From Octopus vulgaris (lineage: Eukaryota): a stretch of 64,000 bases of DNA. A program made the translations under genes and the position numbers. The stretch spans positions 17,174,001-17,238,000 of the forward strand of contig OX597814.1 of NCBI GenBank assembly GCA_951406725.2, given 5' to 3'. The notes beneath the pieces are model-generated. The model did not search any database. It saw only the letters and a list, made by a program, of their open reading frames with translations, and was not told the origin of the DNA. Position 1 is the first letter of the stretch, and the number at the start of each line of letters is the position of its first letter. Below, one piece after another: positions 5,367-50,189 of this stretch.

Positions 5367-5599
5367 ACTACCGAGAATTCACAACGACCTCGAACCCACA
5401 AGAGTAAACAAGAGAGAGCGAAACAGGCAGAAACAAGGAAAATGCCACTTGTATTTGAACACTGTGCAAATATTCTTTTAAAAAACTTTAATTTTAATTT
5501 CCATACTTACAGTTGAAAAACTCTCAATGACTGAAACCGGTACTGAAATGTTTTTTTTATAAAATTATTTTAGCATATTTTATCTTATATGAATTAGTT

Positions 5600-5685
5600 T
5601 ACATTTAGACACAACGAGGCAAGCCTTTAACAGGTTGCCTAATATACTAGAAAGAACAGTCAGAGAGTCCAAACCACAGCCTCTT
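5600..5685 (-). repeat. fragment of the same repeat family as the 10.7-11.26 kb hammerhead elements
   Basis: ctttaacaggttgcctaatatactagaaagaacagtcagagagtccaaaccacag aligns by eye with the reverse complement of 11170-11225. Confidence 0.55.
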
Positions 5686-5934
5686 TGTGTATAACTGTAC
5701 ATTAATTGTTATATGAAAACTATGTCTGTTGTCTTTGCATACATACTAGGCCACATGTAGAAAAAATTGCTAAAAGGAGTGTATGAACCTATTTGGTATT
5801 GCATCAAATGTTGAGCGATTGCTTGGAAAAAGTATGGCGAATTGGAGGACGGACCTGACAGCATACGGCAGAAGCTTAGGGACAGTAGAGATTGGGAGCC
5901 AGTCCCCATTCATCTTTGCATTGTGCTTGATCAG

Positions 5935-7463
5935 TACAATCATTTGTTATTCATAGATGACCTCAAACTTTATGGTAAAAATGAAGCCCAAGTCAGTTCC
6001 GTCGTTGATACGGTGTATACCTTCAGTGCGGATATCAGGAAGTAGTTCGGACTGAGAAAGTGTGGTGTGTTAGTCTCGAAGAGGGGCAAAATCAAATGCA
6101 TGGATGGACTAACGATACCGTCGGGGGAGGTTATGAAGCAGATAGAAGAGACGGGCTGTAAATACTTGGGGATTCTGGAAATGGATAAATAGATGGAGAA
6201 ATAAGTGACAGAAAAATTTAAGGTGGAGTACTTGCGCAGATTGGGACTGATTCTAAAGCCGAAATTGAACGGACGGAATAAGATTGAAGCTATCAACAGC
6301 TCGGCCTTTTTCTCTTTTTAGATATGGAGCAGTGGTAATTGCATGGAAAGTAGACGAACAAAAGAGCTTAGACAGAAAGACAAAGAAGTTGCAAACTAGA
6401 TATGGGTCACTCCACCACAAAAGTGACTCAGACAGACTGTATGTACCAAGAAAAAGAGGGATACGAGGACTTACTGGATGCGAATACAGCATTAGAGCAG
6501 AAGAAAACAACATAGCATGGCATGTAAAAAAATTCCATAGAACCGCTATTATTAGAGGTAAGAAGGTCAGTCTTGTGTAGGATGAAAGATTGCAAAGATA
6601 AAGCATTATACAAGAAATTGAAAACGAATGAAACTGAAAATATATGGGTAAAGAAAAGAATACTTGGTCAATTCCACAGGGATGTTGAAGATGAGACAGA
6701 CAAAGAAAAAATGTGATTTAAAACCGGAAACGGTGGCTCTAATCTGTGCTGCCCAAGAGCAAGCACTTAGAACAAATTACATAAAATACAGATTAGACAA
6801 CACAGAAGAAAGTGATAAGTACAAAATCTCCGGACAAAACGGTGAAACTGTATGGCATATTACCATCCGATATACGCCACGAGCCCAGAAGGAATATAAG
6901 AGACGCCACGACAATATAACCAGGCTGGTCCATTGGACACTTTGCAACAAGTATGAACTTGACAGAGAAAAAAATTTCTACGACCACAAATCTGAAGGCA
7001 TCGTTGAAGATGGAAATGCAAAGATCCTATGGTATTTCATCATTCAGTGCGACCATGAGATAGAGAATAGGAAGCCGGACATAGTCTTAATTGAGGAAGA
7101 AAACAAACTATGCTGGATCATAGACATAGCGTCCCCAGCTGACAAGGTATGCGATAAAGAAGAAAGAAAAATCGAGAGATATAACATGTTAGTTTTGGAA
7201 GTTAAGCAGTTGTGGTCGATGAAAAAGTTAGCTGAAGTACCAATAATTGTCGGGGCCCTGGGAATAATAGTGAGCAAAATCTCGAGAAATACGTGGAAGA
7301 AATAGGGGCTGCAATAAGTGTGGAGCACTTGCAGAAAACAGCACTGCTTGGAACGGTTGAAACGTTCCGGAAGGTGCTCGAAAAATAAGAGGTGTTACCT
7401 TAGTTCACTGGCAGTGGAACAGCTGACAATTTAATACGTATCCAACGTTAGAAGCTGTGCGAA

Positions 7464-9414: not shown

Positions 9415-9745
9415 TTCATCTTTTACTTCTTTCAGTCATATTGGTGAGGCCATACTGGAGCACGGCCTTGAAGGGTTTTAGTAGAAGAAATAAACATCAC
9501 GACTTATTTTTTAAGCCTAGAACTTATTCCATTGAACACTTTTGCCGAACTGCTAAGTTACAGGAATGTAAACACACCTACATCAGTTGCAAAGTGGTAG
9601 TGGGGGACAAACAGATACAAATACATGAAGATAGATATATACAACCATACATACATACATACATACATACATACATACATACATACATACATCTTTTTTT
9701 ATTTTATCTAGTTTCAGCTCACGAGCTGTGGCCATGCTGGGGCAC

Positions 9746-9792
<47 letters not shown>

Positions 9793-9950
9793 TCGATGGG
9801 TTTCCTTCCCTTTCCGCCTAACAAAGCCACCTCACAAGGCTTTAGTCGGCCAGAAGCTATAGTAGAAAACACTTGCCCAAAGTACCACGCAGCAAGAGTG
9901 AACACAGGATCACGTGGTTGGGAAGCAAACTTCTTAGTACACAGCTATAC
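9415..9950 (-). mobile_element. degenerate SINE family C, interrupted by microsatellites
   Basis: Similar to 47695-48102 (ttttactt..tttcagtcat; gctatagtagaa.acacttgccca). Confidence 0.75.
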
Positions 9951-9972
9951 CTATCTGTCTTGTACAACCCGC

Positions 9973-10029
<57 letters not shown>

Positions 10030-10162
10030 CCTCTCCCACTCTATTTCTCTTTGAACAACAACAACGATAACGTCATTATAGTGAAAGTGTTTTTTTCGAA
10101 GCACATGTTGCACTGTATCTATGTTGAAAGACATAGAGAAACACTCACACACACACACACAC

Positions 10163-10209
<47 letters not shown>

Positions 10210-10356
10210 GCATGCACGCACGCACGCACAGAAATGCACAAAAATAAACAATCAATACTGTTACATAGTGACAGTCTTCCTTTAAGCTGTGTCGCGTTGC
10301 ATAGTGTCTAAGTTGAAAGACATACAGAAACACACAACCACACTCAGACACACACA

Positions 10357-10412
<56 letters not shown>

Positions 10413-10561
10413 AACAAACAACCATTAAAAAATGTATATTTCATGATGAGTCCTTTCTTTGAAACTGCTTTGTTGTGTTGAAACTTGCACTTAAAATTCT
10501 TACGTTTTTAATCAATATTTGTTAGTCACTACGGTGACAACATTGCCTGTCTGTCAGTCTG

Positions 10562-10633
<72 letters not shown>

Positions 10634-10857
10634 CCTATCTATCTATCTACCTAATTCTTAAAATAATATAGGTAGCAAAACTTTAGAAATTTTTCTACTA
10701 GTGGCCTAGCATGTATAAAAATCAATAGACAACATATTTCCCATATAAAATTTGTGTACATTTAAACACAAAAAGAGGTGACTCTTAACAGGCCATCTTA
10801 CATGCTAGAAGAGCAATTTCGAAGGGAATGAAAAATAAAAACACTTACCATTTTTTA

Positions 10858-10930
10858 CAGCCAGACCTAGGTTTTGAACTTTAATTAGCAAATAAAATAA
10901 TTTGCAAGGCATAGTTCTCATCAGTGGGCA
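10858..10930 (-). ncRNA. hammerhead ribozyme copy with G12-to-A core mutation (probably inactive)
   Basis: Minus strand: gccca-CTGATGA-GAAC...GTTC-AAAA-CCTAGGTC-tggctg. Confidence 0.75.
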
Positions 10931-11045
10931 CGCCAAACATTGAATATATAATTTAGAGACAGAATAACACGTGAATTTGAAAAATTATAATATATAATGA
11001 TGAGATACTTTTTATTCAGTCTCTAAATTATGTTAACGTTTGGCG

Positions 11046-11118
11046 TAGCCACTGATGAGAACTTCGCCTCGCAAATTATTTTATTTGCTAATTAACGTTC
11101 GAAACCTAGGTCTGGTTG
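11046..11118 (+). ncRNA. canonical type I hammerhead ribozyme, predicted cleavage after GUC at 11112
   Basis: TAGCCA-CTGATGA-GAAC-(loop with GCAAAT/ATTTGC hairpin)-GTTC-GAAA-CCTAGG-TC^TGGTTG. All core nucleotides are intact and stem III is the palindrome ACCTAGGT. Confidence 0.85.
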
Positions 11119-12331
11119 TAAAACATGGTAAATGTTTTTATTTTTCATTCCCTTCGAAATTGCTCTTAACTGTGGTTTTGGACTTTTGACTGTTCCTTCT
11201 AGCATGTAAGGCGGCTTGTTAAGGGTCACCACGTTTCGCGTTTGTACACTAATTTTATATTTATCTATCTCTGTCACACACACACACTCACTCATTTTTT
11301 CTCTCTTTCATTTTCTCCCCCTTTCTCTCTTTCTCTCACTCTCTCTTTCTCTTTCTCACTTTTACGCTGTATTTCTCTCTCAGCAACAACTACTCTCCTC
11401 CACTTCATCTAAAGAATGAAAGGAGATCTGACATTATTGGGAATTATAGGCTCTCACTTCTTCCCAAAGCAAACTTCTACAGCATGACTTATCTTCACTG
11501 CTCTATAGACTCCAAAGAAGACAAAACAAGCGGTAAATTTTGAGAGTTACATCAGCCCGTGTTTCACTAAGAACAAAAATAACTCAACTCGAATTTTTTG
11601 CGTGGAATCAAATGCCCTGACATTGTAATTTGCTGCAAACCCCTTATTTTTGTTCAGACAAAAAGGGGTGGGTGGGAAACCGGTCACCCCTCCACCATCC
11701 CGGAATCAAATATAAAAGAAGCCGTAGAAAGGAAAGTTCTGTGATTACATTTTACAATATGCAGCACGAAGTTTTGTCAGTGAACAGGTTGCGGTCTCAA
11801 ACCGACGAAAATATTTTGACAAATTGAATTTAAATGTTGAAGTGAATCTAACAGTTTTTGTGTGTTTCTTAAAGGGCTTATAAACACCTTCCACGCTGCA
11901 ATTATTTTACAATAGCACTTTTAGTAAATCGAAACATTAGATTCTAAATAAGAGAGAATTAGCTACGATATGTCAAGAGTGTTATAAAGTTATTACAGAA
12001 GGGCTTCCTTGTACGAGTTGCCCTCAACAAAACTAGATCATACATTTCGTATGAGAGGCCTCTTCCTTCAAAGATGGGACATGTGATAAGGTCAGAGTAG
12101 GTTCATCCCAAGAAAAAGCAAACTTAAAATATATAACAAATATCGTAGACTATTTCAGAAAAAAATATAAAAATACATATGTAATTACAGTGATAGGCGA
12201 AGAGGAAAAATGATAGAAGATATGATATAGGAAAAATTGTGAGAGAGCACAAAATATAAGTATAAAGAATATTTATAAATGTAAATGAATACCAAAGGGT
12301 ATGTGTGTGTGTATATACACATACATACTGG

Positions 12332-12365
<34 letters not shown>

Positions 12366-12400
12366 CATACTGGTATATATATATATAGAATATATATTGA

Positions 12401-12444
<44 letters not shown>

Positions 12445-12514
12445 ATCAATATCAGGGTAGCAAAAAATTCAAGAGAAATTCTTTCGCCACCAGCGGTCTA
12501 GTGAGAAAGAAAAA

Positions 12515-12720
12515 ATAGTCAACAGACTATATATAATATACATTCAGCAATATTAAGGAATGGCCTATCAAGGCCATTCCTTAATATTGTTATATATATA
12601 TATATATATGTATACATATAGTCAACAGACTATATATAATATACATTCAGCAATATTAAGGAATGGCCTAAAAAGGCCATTCCTTAATATTGTTATATAT
12701 ATAATATATATGTATACATA
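12515..12720. repeat. tandem duplication of a 103-bp unit, each with a perfect 19-bp-stem hairpin
   Basis: caatattaaggaatggcct-(atca or aaaa)-aggccattccttaatattg at 12548-12589 and 12651-12692. Confidence 0.95.
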
Positions 12721-31099: not shown

Positions 31100-32200
31100 T
31101 ATATATTTGCAGCTATTAACCACCTAGATTCAAACTCAGTATCTGGGCCAGTTAGTTTCCTAGCCATATTGTAAAAAAACGTGCAAAATATGCCTCGCCA
31201 AATATTTAAAGATGCTATTTCAAATGTCGTTATATACAGGTATATTCGCAGAACTATTTAAAAACGCATTAGTAGCACCAATAGATAATAGAGTTAGCAG
31301 GGCTGAAGCTAAAATCACATACCTGTTTCTCTCGTATCTCACCCATCTAAAATTGTTGGACGCAAAAAGAATAAGTTCGTACTTTGAGGAAAACAACATC
31401 TTAGACAACACACATGGTTTTCGGACTAGACGAAGTTGCCTGTCACTATTATTACAGCACCTTATCACTATCCTCCCTAATGTCTTGAAAGGAATGAATA
31501 CTGATTGTATATACTTTGATTTTGCAACAGCATTTGACAAAATTGATCATGGCATCATTTGTCATAGGTTAAGGGAATTTGGTACCACAGGAAAACTCTG
31601 TGAATGATATTTTGATTTCTTATAGGGTAGGAATCAATCTGTTGCTGCAAACGGTTTTCTCTCTACAAAAGTCACCAGTAACACGTGGTATCCCTCAGAG
31701 TATGGTTCTAAGACCATTATTATTTATCATCACCCCATCAGCTATAATCTCATAAGAGCTCTCGAACAACCTGACAAGCTATGCTGAATACACAAAAGTC
31801 TCGATAGCTTTCCAAACTCCAAATGATCTCGTCATACTCCAAAACGAGCTAAACGTCAGTTATCAATGAGCAGATTAAAACCATATGAAACTAAATGCAT
31901 CAAAATTTCAGGTTCTGCATTACAGAGTGAATACACACAAATCACATTATTTGGCAGATGACAATTATTCAGGTCGCTAATGACAGACGGTACTTGGGGA
32001 GTAATCGTGTCAAATGATGCATCTTTCATCAGCCCATCGCGAAACTGACATCCAAATACAGACATCTCATAGGATGGAGCCCACGAACCTTCGTGACATG
32101 AGAGCCGATAGTCATGCTGATTCTATGGAAAACCTCAGTTTTGAGCAGATTCCCTTTTTTTATCACAGCATACGCAAAAGCCCATCGGCAGATGAGATCC
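31100..32200 (+). mobile_element. CR1/L2/Jockey-group LINE RT relic
   Basis: ORF 31212 HGFRTRRSCLS...IYFDFATAFDKIDHG, then GRNQSV and GIPQSMVLRPLLF (compare GVPQGSVLGPLLF); stops and frameshifts. Confidence 0.85.
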
Positions 32201-35949: not shown

Positions 35950-36850
35950 CAGATGACAAATATTCTCTTTCAGCATGATTTGTTGATCTTTTTATGTAGT
36001 ATTCTGTTAATTATGACCCAGAGGTGTCCAAAAAGGTTCATATCTGATAACTGGCTTGGCCACAGAAGCTTTTTATTGCCATTCTCTTCCAACTAATCTT
36101 GGTTCTTTCTAGCCGTGTGACAAGGAGCCCCATCTTTCATAAATAAAGAATCTTCTTTAATCATTTCACCACTGGAGAAGATTGGAAAGAGTCTTTTCTA
36201 CACTATGGACGCATATTTAGCTAAGTTTATGTTTCAATTACACTTCACCAGCTCTGATCGACCATTGCTGCAAATTGTTCCCCAGACCATCACAGAATAG
36301 CCACTGAGTTTCATTGTTGGCTGTACTTCAGGTCAAATTTTTGATCAGTCTCCAGACCCACACTCGTCCACTGTCAGAAAATACAGCAAATTTGGACTCA
36401 TCAGAGAATATGACAGAGTCGCATTGGTATTGGCTTCTCCACCGTCTCACTAGCCAAATCTTTTCTCCGACTGTTATTGGCTGGTCGAAGAAGTGGCTTC
36501 CTTCTTGCTGCTCTGCTATAGTAGCCACGTTTTAGGAGATACCTGATAGCTGTTCTAAGATTGATATCAACTTATTCTGCCCGGCCAGAAGACTTGCAAC
36601 GAGTATTATCCTCCACACTTCACTTAACAAAGCGAAGGGTTCTGTCAGAGGGCTCTGGTCGACCTGGGCGAGGTAATGTGGACTCCTTTCCCTCCCTTGT
36701 GAATTGCACAATCATTCTATTAACTGTAGAAAGCGGGATACCAAGTCTTTCTGCCATTTTACTCTGACTAGGTCCATCTTCAGACTGACTAACAATAGGA
36801 CTCTTTGAAATTCGGACAGTTCTAAACCTTCTTTTGTAAGTGGCATAATT
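35950..36850 (-). pseudogene. Tc1-family transposase pseudogene
   Basis: [54 protein letters not shown] and WPSQLSDMNLFGHLW (third catalytic residue E appears as G); frameshifts. Confidence 0.9.
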
Positions 36851-36978
36851 AAACAGTCACACATAGAACCTGAAATACAAATAGGTCAATAAAAAATATA
36901 AATTGTTTCAAGTTAAAATAAGCATAAAACGATGATTTATTGGCTGTCTATTTACTTCTGTCACGTCTGTGAATGTAT

Positions 36979-49003: not shown

Positions 49004-50189
49004 TAGAAGGTTGAGTAAAAAGTATGCAACGTTTTGAACCATGGAGTATTTGTAACAGATTTTTGCAGAGTTTTATGAAATTGTCTGCTAACACGGGCAT
49101 GCACTTTCCCAAATGCATCAATAAATTAACATTGATATTTTTTTCAATGTTGTTACAGTTATCTGAAATGTAACTGTCAAAGCGCGATATTCGAGCAATT
49201 TTGCTATTCTGCTTGAAAAAGGACGTGAAACTGCTGAAACTGCTCACGATATCAACGAAACGTTTGGTGAGGAAATGACCAGTGAGTGGTTAGCTCGAAA
49301 ATCATTTAAACGGTTTCGCAGTGGAAACTTGAGACTTGAAGAAAGTGAGCGTAGTGGACGCCCATCTGTCATCGATGACAGACAATTGAAGAGCGTTATT
49401 GAGAAAGATCCACGTAAAACCACTCGAAAACTGGCGAAAAACTTCAAGTTAGCCAGAAAAGGTCTGCAATCATTTGCATGCGATCAGAAAATCAAAAGCG
49501 CTCGACAAATGGGTACCACACGATTTGAAAGAAAATCAGAAAATGTGCAGATAAGAAATTTGCTAGTCGCTTCTTCTCGACCGTATAATAGCTTGCGATG
49601 AAAAGTGAATTTTGTACAATAGTAAAAAACGTGCTTCGCACTGTTTGGACCAGAATGAAGGACCGAAAACCTTACTTAAACCTGAGCTCTTCAAAGAAAA
49701 GGTAATGGTGACTTTTTGGTGGTGTACTGCTGGACTCATCCACTATAACTTCTTAAACGAGGAAAAACCTGCAGAAACATATTGTCATGAAGAGAAGAGG
49801 TTCAATCATTCTTCGTGACAATGCTCGACCACACGTTTAACTAATAACGCTCCAGAAGTTGAAGGAACTTGGCTACGAAGTTCTTCCCCACCCAGCTTAT
49901 TCCCCAGACCTTTCTCCTACCGACTACCACATTTTCAAGAACCTTGATGGTTTTCTGCGAGAGAAGGAGTTAAAAAATCAAACTGATGCTGAAAGTGCGT
50001 TCAAAGAGTTCACCAGGCCCAGAACTCCAGCTTTTTATGTTACCGGAGTAAGTAAGCTTGTAACTCATTGGCAAAATTGTGTTAATTGTAATGGCCCTTA
50101 CTTTGATGCATAAAATTTCTGCATTGTTGAAATATATTGTAATGAATTTCATGTTTCAAAATGTTGCTTACTTTTTACTCAGCCCGATA
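49004..50189 (+). mobile_element. mariner transposon, near full length, degraded transposase
   Basis: TIRs ggttgagtaaaaagtatgcaacgttttgaa and ttcaaaatgttgcttactttttactcagcccga|ta. Motifs RFRSGN, RSGRP, WVPHDL, KVMVTFWW, DNARPH and YSPDLSPTDY. Confidence 0.95.

Follow-up and report, generated by a model that had tools for sequence, protein, structure and literature searches.

Probable insertion of a protein-free hammerhead retrozyme as two truncated, head-to-head arms in the Octopus vulgaris genome

The stretch of Octopus vulgaris DNA analysed here (64,000 nucleotides of contig OX597814.1, hereafter the window) carries two inverted arms, one with an intact and one with a mutated hammerhead ribozyme motif. 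The locus is very probably an old, decayed insertion of a ~450-nt protein-free hammerhead retrozyme, in which two truncated arms lie head to head, likely made by the enzyme of a Penelope-like element (PLE) and likely functionless. Insertion and age, rather than regulation, likely account for both the inverted layout and the broken ribozyme, because the pair geometry is usual in the family and the decay is recurrent. The family is apparently an undescribed family of non-LTR retrozymes. The features of the locus are listed in Table 1.

Table 1. Features of the head-to-head locus and of a related insertion (window coordinates; a dot indicates no strand)
Feature	Position	Strand	Basis or detail
Right arm, 5'-truncated piece of probable retrozyme monomer	10971..11260	+	Profile match 10971-11260, 285 bits
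Left arm, 5'-truncated piece of the same monomer as right arm	10654..10973	-	Profile matches 10973-10744 and 10742-10654
Head-to-head junction, GTG common to both arms, spacer 0	10971..10973	.	Sequence against family alignment
Tail segment, ~88 nt, part of monomer, on left arm only	10654..10742	-	Profile match
(TATC)n microsatellite, likely target site	10560..10653	.	Sequence
Short microsatellite remnant 3' of right arm	11261-11272	.	Sequence
Putative type I hammerhead motif, intact core, predicted cut after C11112	11045..11119	+	Descriptor scan, family covariation
Right-arm stem I, GUAGCCA/UGGUUGU	11045-51/11113-19	+	
Right-arm CUGAUGA	11052-11058	+	
Right-arm stem II, GAAC/GUUC	11059-62/11097-100	+	Inner hairpin 11071-76/11083-88
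Right-arm GAAA	11101-11104	+	
Right-arm palindromic stem III, ACCUAGGU	11104-11111	+	C17 at 11112
Left-arm hammerhead motif with G12A (position 10875, CpG transition)	10857..10931	-	Same change in 13 genomic copies
Left-arm CUGAUGA	10924-10918	-	C17 at 10864
Second, shorter head-to-head insertion of same family, without hammerhead	5588..5773	.	Profile matches 5679-5588 (minus), 5716-5773 (plus)

The two arms point outward and are reverse complements of each other, as the first-pass annotation had claimed. They are identical in 214 of 246 aligned columns (87-89% identity; 89% over the 159-nt core) and have 220 nt of one monomer region in common. The left arm has a 31-nt deletion relative to the right arm in the alignment. 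A spacer of ~45 bp had been proposed, but there is an overlap of 3 nt between the arms; what looked like a gap is additional 5' sequence of the right arm, absent from the left arm. The left arm itself is real, but its end had been placed too early; it continues for ~90 bp through a tail conserved in the family. The right arm stops at the proximal of the two 3' end sites of the family, without the tail, and the left arm stops at the distal site, with the tail. No duplication was found in the flanking DNA around the pair.

The second insertion in Table 1 lies ~5 kb from the hammerhead pair. Remnants of LINE-type reverse transcriptase (RT) and mariner-type transposase are present at positions 1-294, 6652-7305, 31164-31607, 36623-36856, and 49167-49815. 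At 12515-12703, an 86-nt sequence occurs twice in direct orientation, the copies being 103 nt apart, and both copies have a perfect inverted repeat inside.

The right-arm motif is the sole complete hammerhead detected by descriptor scan in the 64 kb. Its CUGAUGA, stem II, GAAA, and C17 confirm the earlier identification of a complete type I hammerhead, and the AAAA reported instead of GAAA in the left arm is present at 10875-10872. CUGANGA, GAAA, UH, and stems I-III are all found in the right arm, and the left arm departs from this set at G12. The position numbers (C11.1, G12, C17) follow the usual hammerhead convention. Stem I of the left arm also contains a C-C mismatch. The left arm had been suggested as a natural negative control; G12 is indeed mutated, but the control is imperfect, as other positions differ too. 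In a dimer, an intact partner could also cut the GUC site of the left arm in trans. In the right arm, pairs of the family's extended stem II are lost. Its lowest-energy fold is not the hammerhead, which costs ~5.7 kcal/mol, and in two other copies (L022 and L058) stems I and II fold unaided. In positions 9500-12500, Rfam returned only microsatellite-driven miRNA hits and no hammerhead at E up to 5; the missing hammerhead match is likely due to the long stem II insert.

The source genome (2.8 Gb) contains 2238 candidate copies. Forty were scored, and the top copies are 82-91% identical, which is also the range between the right arm and the 39 other top copies. A 20-mer from the tail has 391 exact genome matches. 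The monomer is 444-462 nt in all 13 aligned copies and 415-508 nt in 11 more, has no ORF, has a GC content of 31-33%, and matches none of three PLE proteins. Upstream of the arm, mapped copies have the monomer's own tail and 72 nt that are missing at the window locus. The unit is therefore a circularly permuted monomer. In every long copy mapped, the sequence upstream of the hammerhead rejoins the tail at a fixed junction. Hammerhead pairs on the same strand, 447-461 nt apart, were observed at five loci (L037, L048, L056, L059, and L138). These are head-to-tail dimers, unlike the truncated inverted pair in the window. No long tandem arrays of the monomer were seen, only dimers. An ORF-less permuted monomer with head-to-tail dimers corresponds to the genomic definition of a non-LTR retrozyme, as given in PMC7229834 and bioRxiv 10.64898/2026.07.22.740005. 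Descriptions of such cephalopod families were not found in the literature searched, which mostly excluded subscription papers and did not extend to repeat databases.

The most similar of 64 tail-anchored copies are 96.8% identical, and the median pairwise identity is 92.5%; young copies are absent from this sample. Judged from these identities, the family appears old and is probably silent. The tree of 32 copies is star-like, with a median end-branch length of 0.053. The two arms of the window locus are not sisters in it, although the tree is weakly resolved (1 of 29 inner branches well supported). Circular folding of three monomers gave inconsistent z scores of -3.4, -2.1, and -0.6 against 15 crude shuffles.

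In the alignment of the family, stems I and II covary across subfamilies, so the ribozyme was selected in the source elements. The alignment included 101 distinct copies of 103; two copies with deletions across stem III were left out. There are 138 cells with two-sided changes, compared with 48 in shuffles and 21-56 in slid controls. Since the changes are shared by descent, they represent a handful of events, not 138. Two-sided changes are seen in 6 of 7 stem I pairs and in 4 of 6 stem II pairs. Stem I is GUAGCCA/UGGCUGU, GCGGUUA/UAACCGU, or GUAUCCG/CGGCUGU depending on the subfamily. In 49 of the 101 copies, the two bases at pair 4 of stem I do not pair, so some subfamilies carry a mismatch there. 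The core columns are 96% conserved; the stem I columns are only 72% conserved, yet they covary, so the proposed comparison of core and stems with the flanks came out, at family level, in favour of the ribozyme.

Decay of the ribozyme is frequent. The core is intact in 62 of 103 copies, and both core and stems in 36. CpG is prone to transition by deamination, and the C11.1-G12 dinucleotide is CG in 58, TG in 34, and CA in 5 of the 103 copies. Strict patterns in the genome matched 91 intact and 13 G12A copies, across subfamilies. The G12A of the left arm thus reads as ordinary CpG decay, because G12 sits in a CpG and the same change recurs.

The back-to-back arrangement is the commonest form in the family. 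The form of insertion was determined for 90 of the 391 tail-anchored copies (the first listed, on contigs C1-C4, with one near-duplicate skipped). An inverted family arm adjoins the 5' end in 51 copies, and inverted sequence is found downstream in one. This count of copies and orientations, which the first-pass annotation had proposed, does not support the view that the pair of intact and mutant ribozymes is special or functional. The 3' ends fall within one 20-column bin in 60 of the 90 copies. (TA)4 is present at the 3' end in 59 of the 90, against 41 of 540 background windows. The partner arm lacks the tail and stops at the proximal site in 30 of the 51 pairs. The arms overlap at the junction by 1-15 nt in 28 pairs, and the overlap is zero or negative in 18. 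Only three pairs, including the window locus, have a hammerhead on both arms.

The family therefore shows the marks of Penelope insertion: the inverted partner (51/90), the one-sided tail (30/51), and the microsatellite target (59/90). An inverted 5'-truncated copy, a one-sided tail, and a microsatellite bias are described as features of PLE insertions in PMC8557442. The earlier assignment of the locus to a Penelope-related type I hammerhead element that is non-coding and whose palindromic stem III is short is supported. Opposite-strand hammerheads separated by 100-700 bp were noted as early as 2014 (PMC4209133). According to PMC11167929, purified PLE protein can cut AT-rich DNA on both strands and extend both, and it initiates at two internal sites of the RNA. 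These two activities provide a possible mechanism for head-to-head pairs.

The insertion may have proceeded as follows. Multimeric RNA from a source locus would be cut by its own hammerhead, which probably dimerises via the ACCUAGGU palindrome. An RT/GIY-YIG protein of Penelope-like type, supplied in trans, would nick both strands of an AT-rich microsatellite. Reverse transcription would be primed twice, once per internal start site, on two templates or two monomers. Both cDNAs would stop early and be joined by microhomology, and the inserted copy would then decay neutrally, by ~5% per arm.

L1 twin-priming involves two priming events and a head-to-head junction with microhomology, and its two parts copy different stretches of one RNA. 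The pairs of the window family are similar to it in the two priming events and the junction with microhomology. Unlike L1 twin-priming, both arms in the window copy the same stretch, so two templates or a multimer are needed.

Like the metazoan non-LTR retrozymes (Cervera and de la Pena 2020, PMC7229834; Li et al. 2026, bioRxiv 10.64898/2026.07.22.740005), the family is built of ORF-less units that are a few hundred nt long, low in GC, and carry a type I hammerhead. The units occur as monomers and as head-to-tail dimers and are dispersed in thousands of copies, and the same genome has autonomous PLEs. It differs in several respects. The unit of 444-462 nt is at the upper end of the 150-450 bp quoted for these retrozymes. 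Stem II is extended by a 34-nt insert with an inner hairpin. Neither long arrays nor abundant circular RNA, known from characterised retrozymes, were seen. The copies are mostly truncated head-to-head pairs in microsatellites, and no young copies were sampled.

With insertions of endonuclease-positive PLEs (Neptune, Penelope/Poseidon), as described in PMC8557442, PMC11167929, and PMC4209133, the family shares the inverted 5'-truncated partner and partial tandems, the two 3' end sites, only one side having a tail, and the bias to (TA)n targets. It also shares the hammerhead with a palindromic stem III and the hammerhead pairs on opposite strands a few hundred bp apart. Unlike those insertions, the family has no RT or GIY-YIG frame, and upstream of it lies the unit's own tail. 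The tail is ~88 nt, against the published 30-40 bp, and no homologous autonomous element was found.

If read-through transcription occurs, the pair is predicted to fold into a hairpin of -296 kcal/mol (z -37 against 20 shuffles) with 203 cross-arm pairs, in which all bases of the ribozyme core are paired. Thus, the folding model agrees with the earlier proposal of a read-through hairpin that sequesters the ribozyme. Most copies of the family would form such a long hairpin, according to the same kind of prediction. A search of sequencing runs listed no RNA run with the locus sequence. Expression was examined in three raw RNA runs, of which ~6% each was covered (12 million records). The evidence is weak, since a different individual or species may be the source of the runs and poly(A) selection is possible, the selection method not being recorded. 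At 85% likeness, 94-125 reads per run fall on the window locus, on both strands, and 82-88% of them continue into unlike sequence, mostly other copies. Reads at least 99% identical to the locus number 0, 1, and 6. The natural dimer at L059 has 80-107 reads without a peak at the cut sites. Of the signs proposed for RNA-seq, namely 5' ends at 11113, circular junctions, and A-to-G clusters, none appeared in these runs: read starts show no peak at 11113, and circular or abundant family RNA was not seen. The runs gave no evidence that the locus is transcribed. The T>C and A>G differences in the reads stem from paralogous copies. A contig run of unrecorded type gave a similar spectrum on L059, and such differences are thus uninformative on editing.

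The inverted layout could also have come about later, if a single inserted copy folded back or underwent inverted duplication at the DNA level. The 220 nt common to both arms would fit this origin, and a near-perfect inverted duplication of a whole element does exist at L292. Such an origin is largely refuted. Each arm ends at one of two fixed 3' sites, the right arm has extra 5' sequence, the polarity in the family is 51 to 1, and the flanking DNA is not duplicated. The identity between the arms (89.2%) does not exceed that to other copies (up to 93%). It has also been proposed that the host uses the pair as a switch, whose read-through hairpin silences the ribozyme and feeds ADAR or Dicer. 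The predicted hairpin with its fully paired core and the intact core of the right arm are what a switch would need. However, the same geometry is seen in 51 of 90 copies, intact cores are frequent (62/103) among decayed copies, near-identical reads are at most six per run without a start peak at 11113, and the Pfam domains in the 126 window frames scanned are only RT and transposase remnants. Host-gene Pfam domains were absent from these frames; a frame scan would miss short exons, and the locus may thus lie within an intron. A host-used switch is very improbable.

The arms may instead be the pLTR of an autonomous PLE, truncated before the ORF, with no separate retrozyme. All the insertion signatures are Penelope-like, retrozymes are reported to derive from pLTRs (bioRxiv 10.64898/2026.07.22.740005), and the ACAUAUGU family in the same genome runs upstream into an open frame. 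Only 150 of 6136 GIY-YIG candidates in the genome were scored, which leaves room for a parent. Against this origin, the upstream sequence of every long mapped copy returns into its own tail at the fixed junction. Three PLE proteins have no match in the window and match only 7 of 231 family loci, where, judged from coordinates, the matches do not adjoin the unit; the unit thus lacks the RT plus GIY-YIG frame of an autonomous PLE. Scanning the 3' regions of 44 GIY-YIG loci (24 + 20) with the monomer profile revealed no homologous terminal repeat of an autonomous element, and 20 loci from divergent subfamilies and another 20 from the young hammerhead family likewise contained no parent element. 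It is thus improbable that the arms are a pLTR. For the preferred reading, a retrozyme inserted by a PLE enzyme, the genome contains intact-looking RT+GIY-YIG frames of 781 aa, which could act in trans. Weighing against it are the failure to find a parent element in the loci scanned, the absence of long arrays and of circular or abundant RNA, the length of the tail, the Rfam result, and the separation of the arms in the weakly resolved tree.

Other hammerhead repeats and PLEs were observed in the genome. The sole hit of the monomer profile near a GIY-YIG fragment (L094/L173) was considered as a parent link and rejected, because a microsatellite and another repeat separate the unit from the frame; it is a distant, unlinked retrozyme family of the same build. 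This relative (L173:2772-3365, L256-L275) has a ~447-nt period, its own hammerhead, and the palindrome ACUCGAGU. It has 357 candidates, shows inverted partners too, and repeats the covariation pattern. The young hammerhead family of L296-L315 has 2562 candidates, 94-98% identical, with a long stem II and the palindrome ACAUAUGU; two intact copies lie back to back in the L252:890-1135 region. In L313 and relatives, its upstream sequence leads, over ~550 nt, into an open frame that they have in common and in which a GIY-YIG-like motif was recognised by eye, so this family is likely the end of an active PLE. The L313-type frame has no Pfam hit, and the L313 frame does not match the 781-aa PLE protein significantly. 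That protein is encoded in many copies of a young Neptune-like element (L172:906-4587), after a separate 359-aa frame; the 3' region of the element has repeated TGACGTC motifs and no hammerhead by descriptor. Another family has two intact hammerheads back to back with stem III ACGAUCGU (L099:208-455). A further old hammerhead repeat (L276-L281) has GAAACCUAGGU and different stems (GUGAAUCUAG/CUAGAUUAUC), with no profile match to the monomer of the window family. A ~290-nt tandem repeat at L249:2600-2900 has a compact canonical type I hammerhead and is a classical retrozyme candidate. The inverted duplication at L292:1721-3134 covers a whole retrozyme insertion with two intact hammerheads.

The 5' ends of the family copies pile up at the predicted cut site. 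Ends were measured from the predicted cut in a window of -3 to +11, whose width was picked after the data were seen. In the tail-anchored set, 8 of 31 copies at risk end there (2.5 expected, p 0.003). Among long copies, for which 24 of 27 arms have a usable anchor, the number is 7 of 11 (0.8 expected, p 4e-6), and in the set anchored just downstream it is 14 of 59 (6.9 expected, p 0.007). The sets overlap in a few loci, and end mapping is uncertain by several bases. With the tail-anchored and long sets pooled, 15 of 42 copies end there against 3.4 expected, the strongest signal among the 310 windows that were scanned. Second among independent peaks is one at a T-rich tract, with 12 of 56 (4.7 expected). 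By eye, ~7 loci start at the cut itself, and three long copies run past one cut site and stop near the next. Most 5' ends are 4-11 nt downstream of the cut and coincide with an A-run at the foot of stem I; such a peak could also result from RT stalling or microhomology.

The pile-up suggests that cleaved linear RNAs served as templates. The family copies may accordingly be a fossil record of germ-line hammerhead cleavage, in which RT ran off the ends of self-cleaved linear RNA; we advance this tentatively, as nearly as likely to be true as not. In the one in vitro study, cleavage was dispensable and RNA ends at the site were not seen (PMC11167929). Nothing on truncation at the cut site was found in the literature searched, mostly without subscription papers.

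The window locus itself is minor, being one decayed copy among thousands. A non-coding retrozyme with the full scars of Penelope-type insertion supports the mobilisation of retrozymes by PLEs, which has been proposed and is unproven. If the reading of the 5' ends is true, animal retrozymes would be inserted at least partly from linear, partly cleaved multimers, not only from closed circles. Alternatively, RT would jump between cleaved monomers as templates. In either case, a two-site Penelope enzyme would write the two arms at once. The excess at the cut site, if genome-wide, would be rare evidence for in vivo ribozyme cutting and for a linear RNA template.
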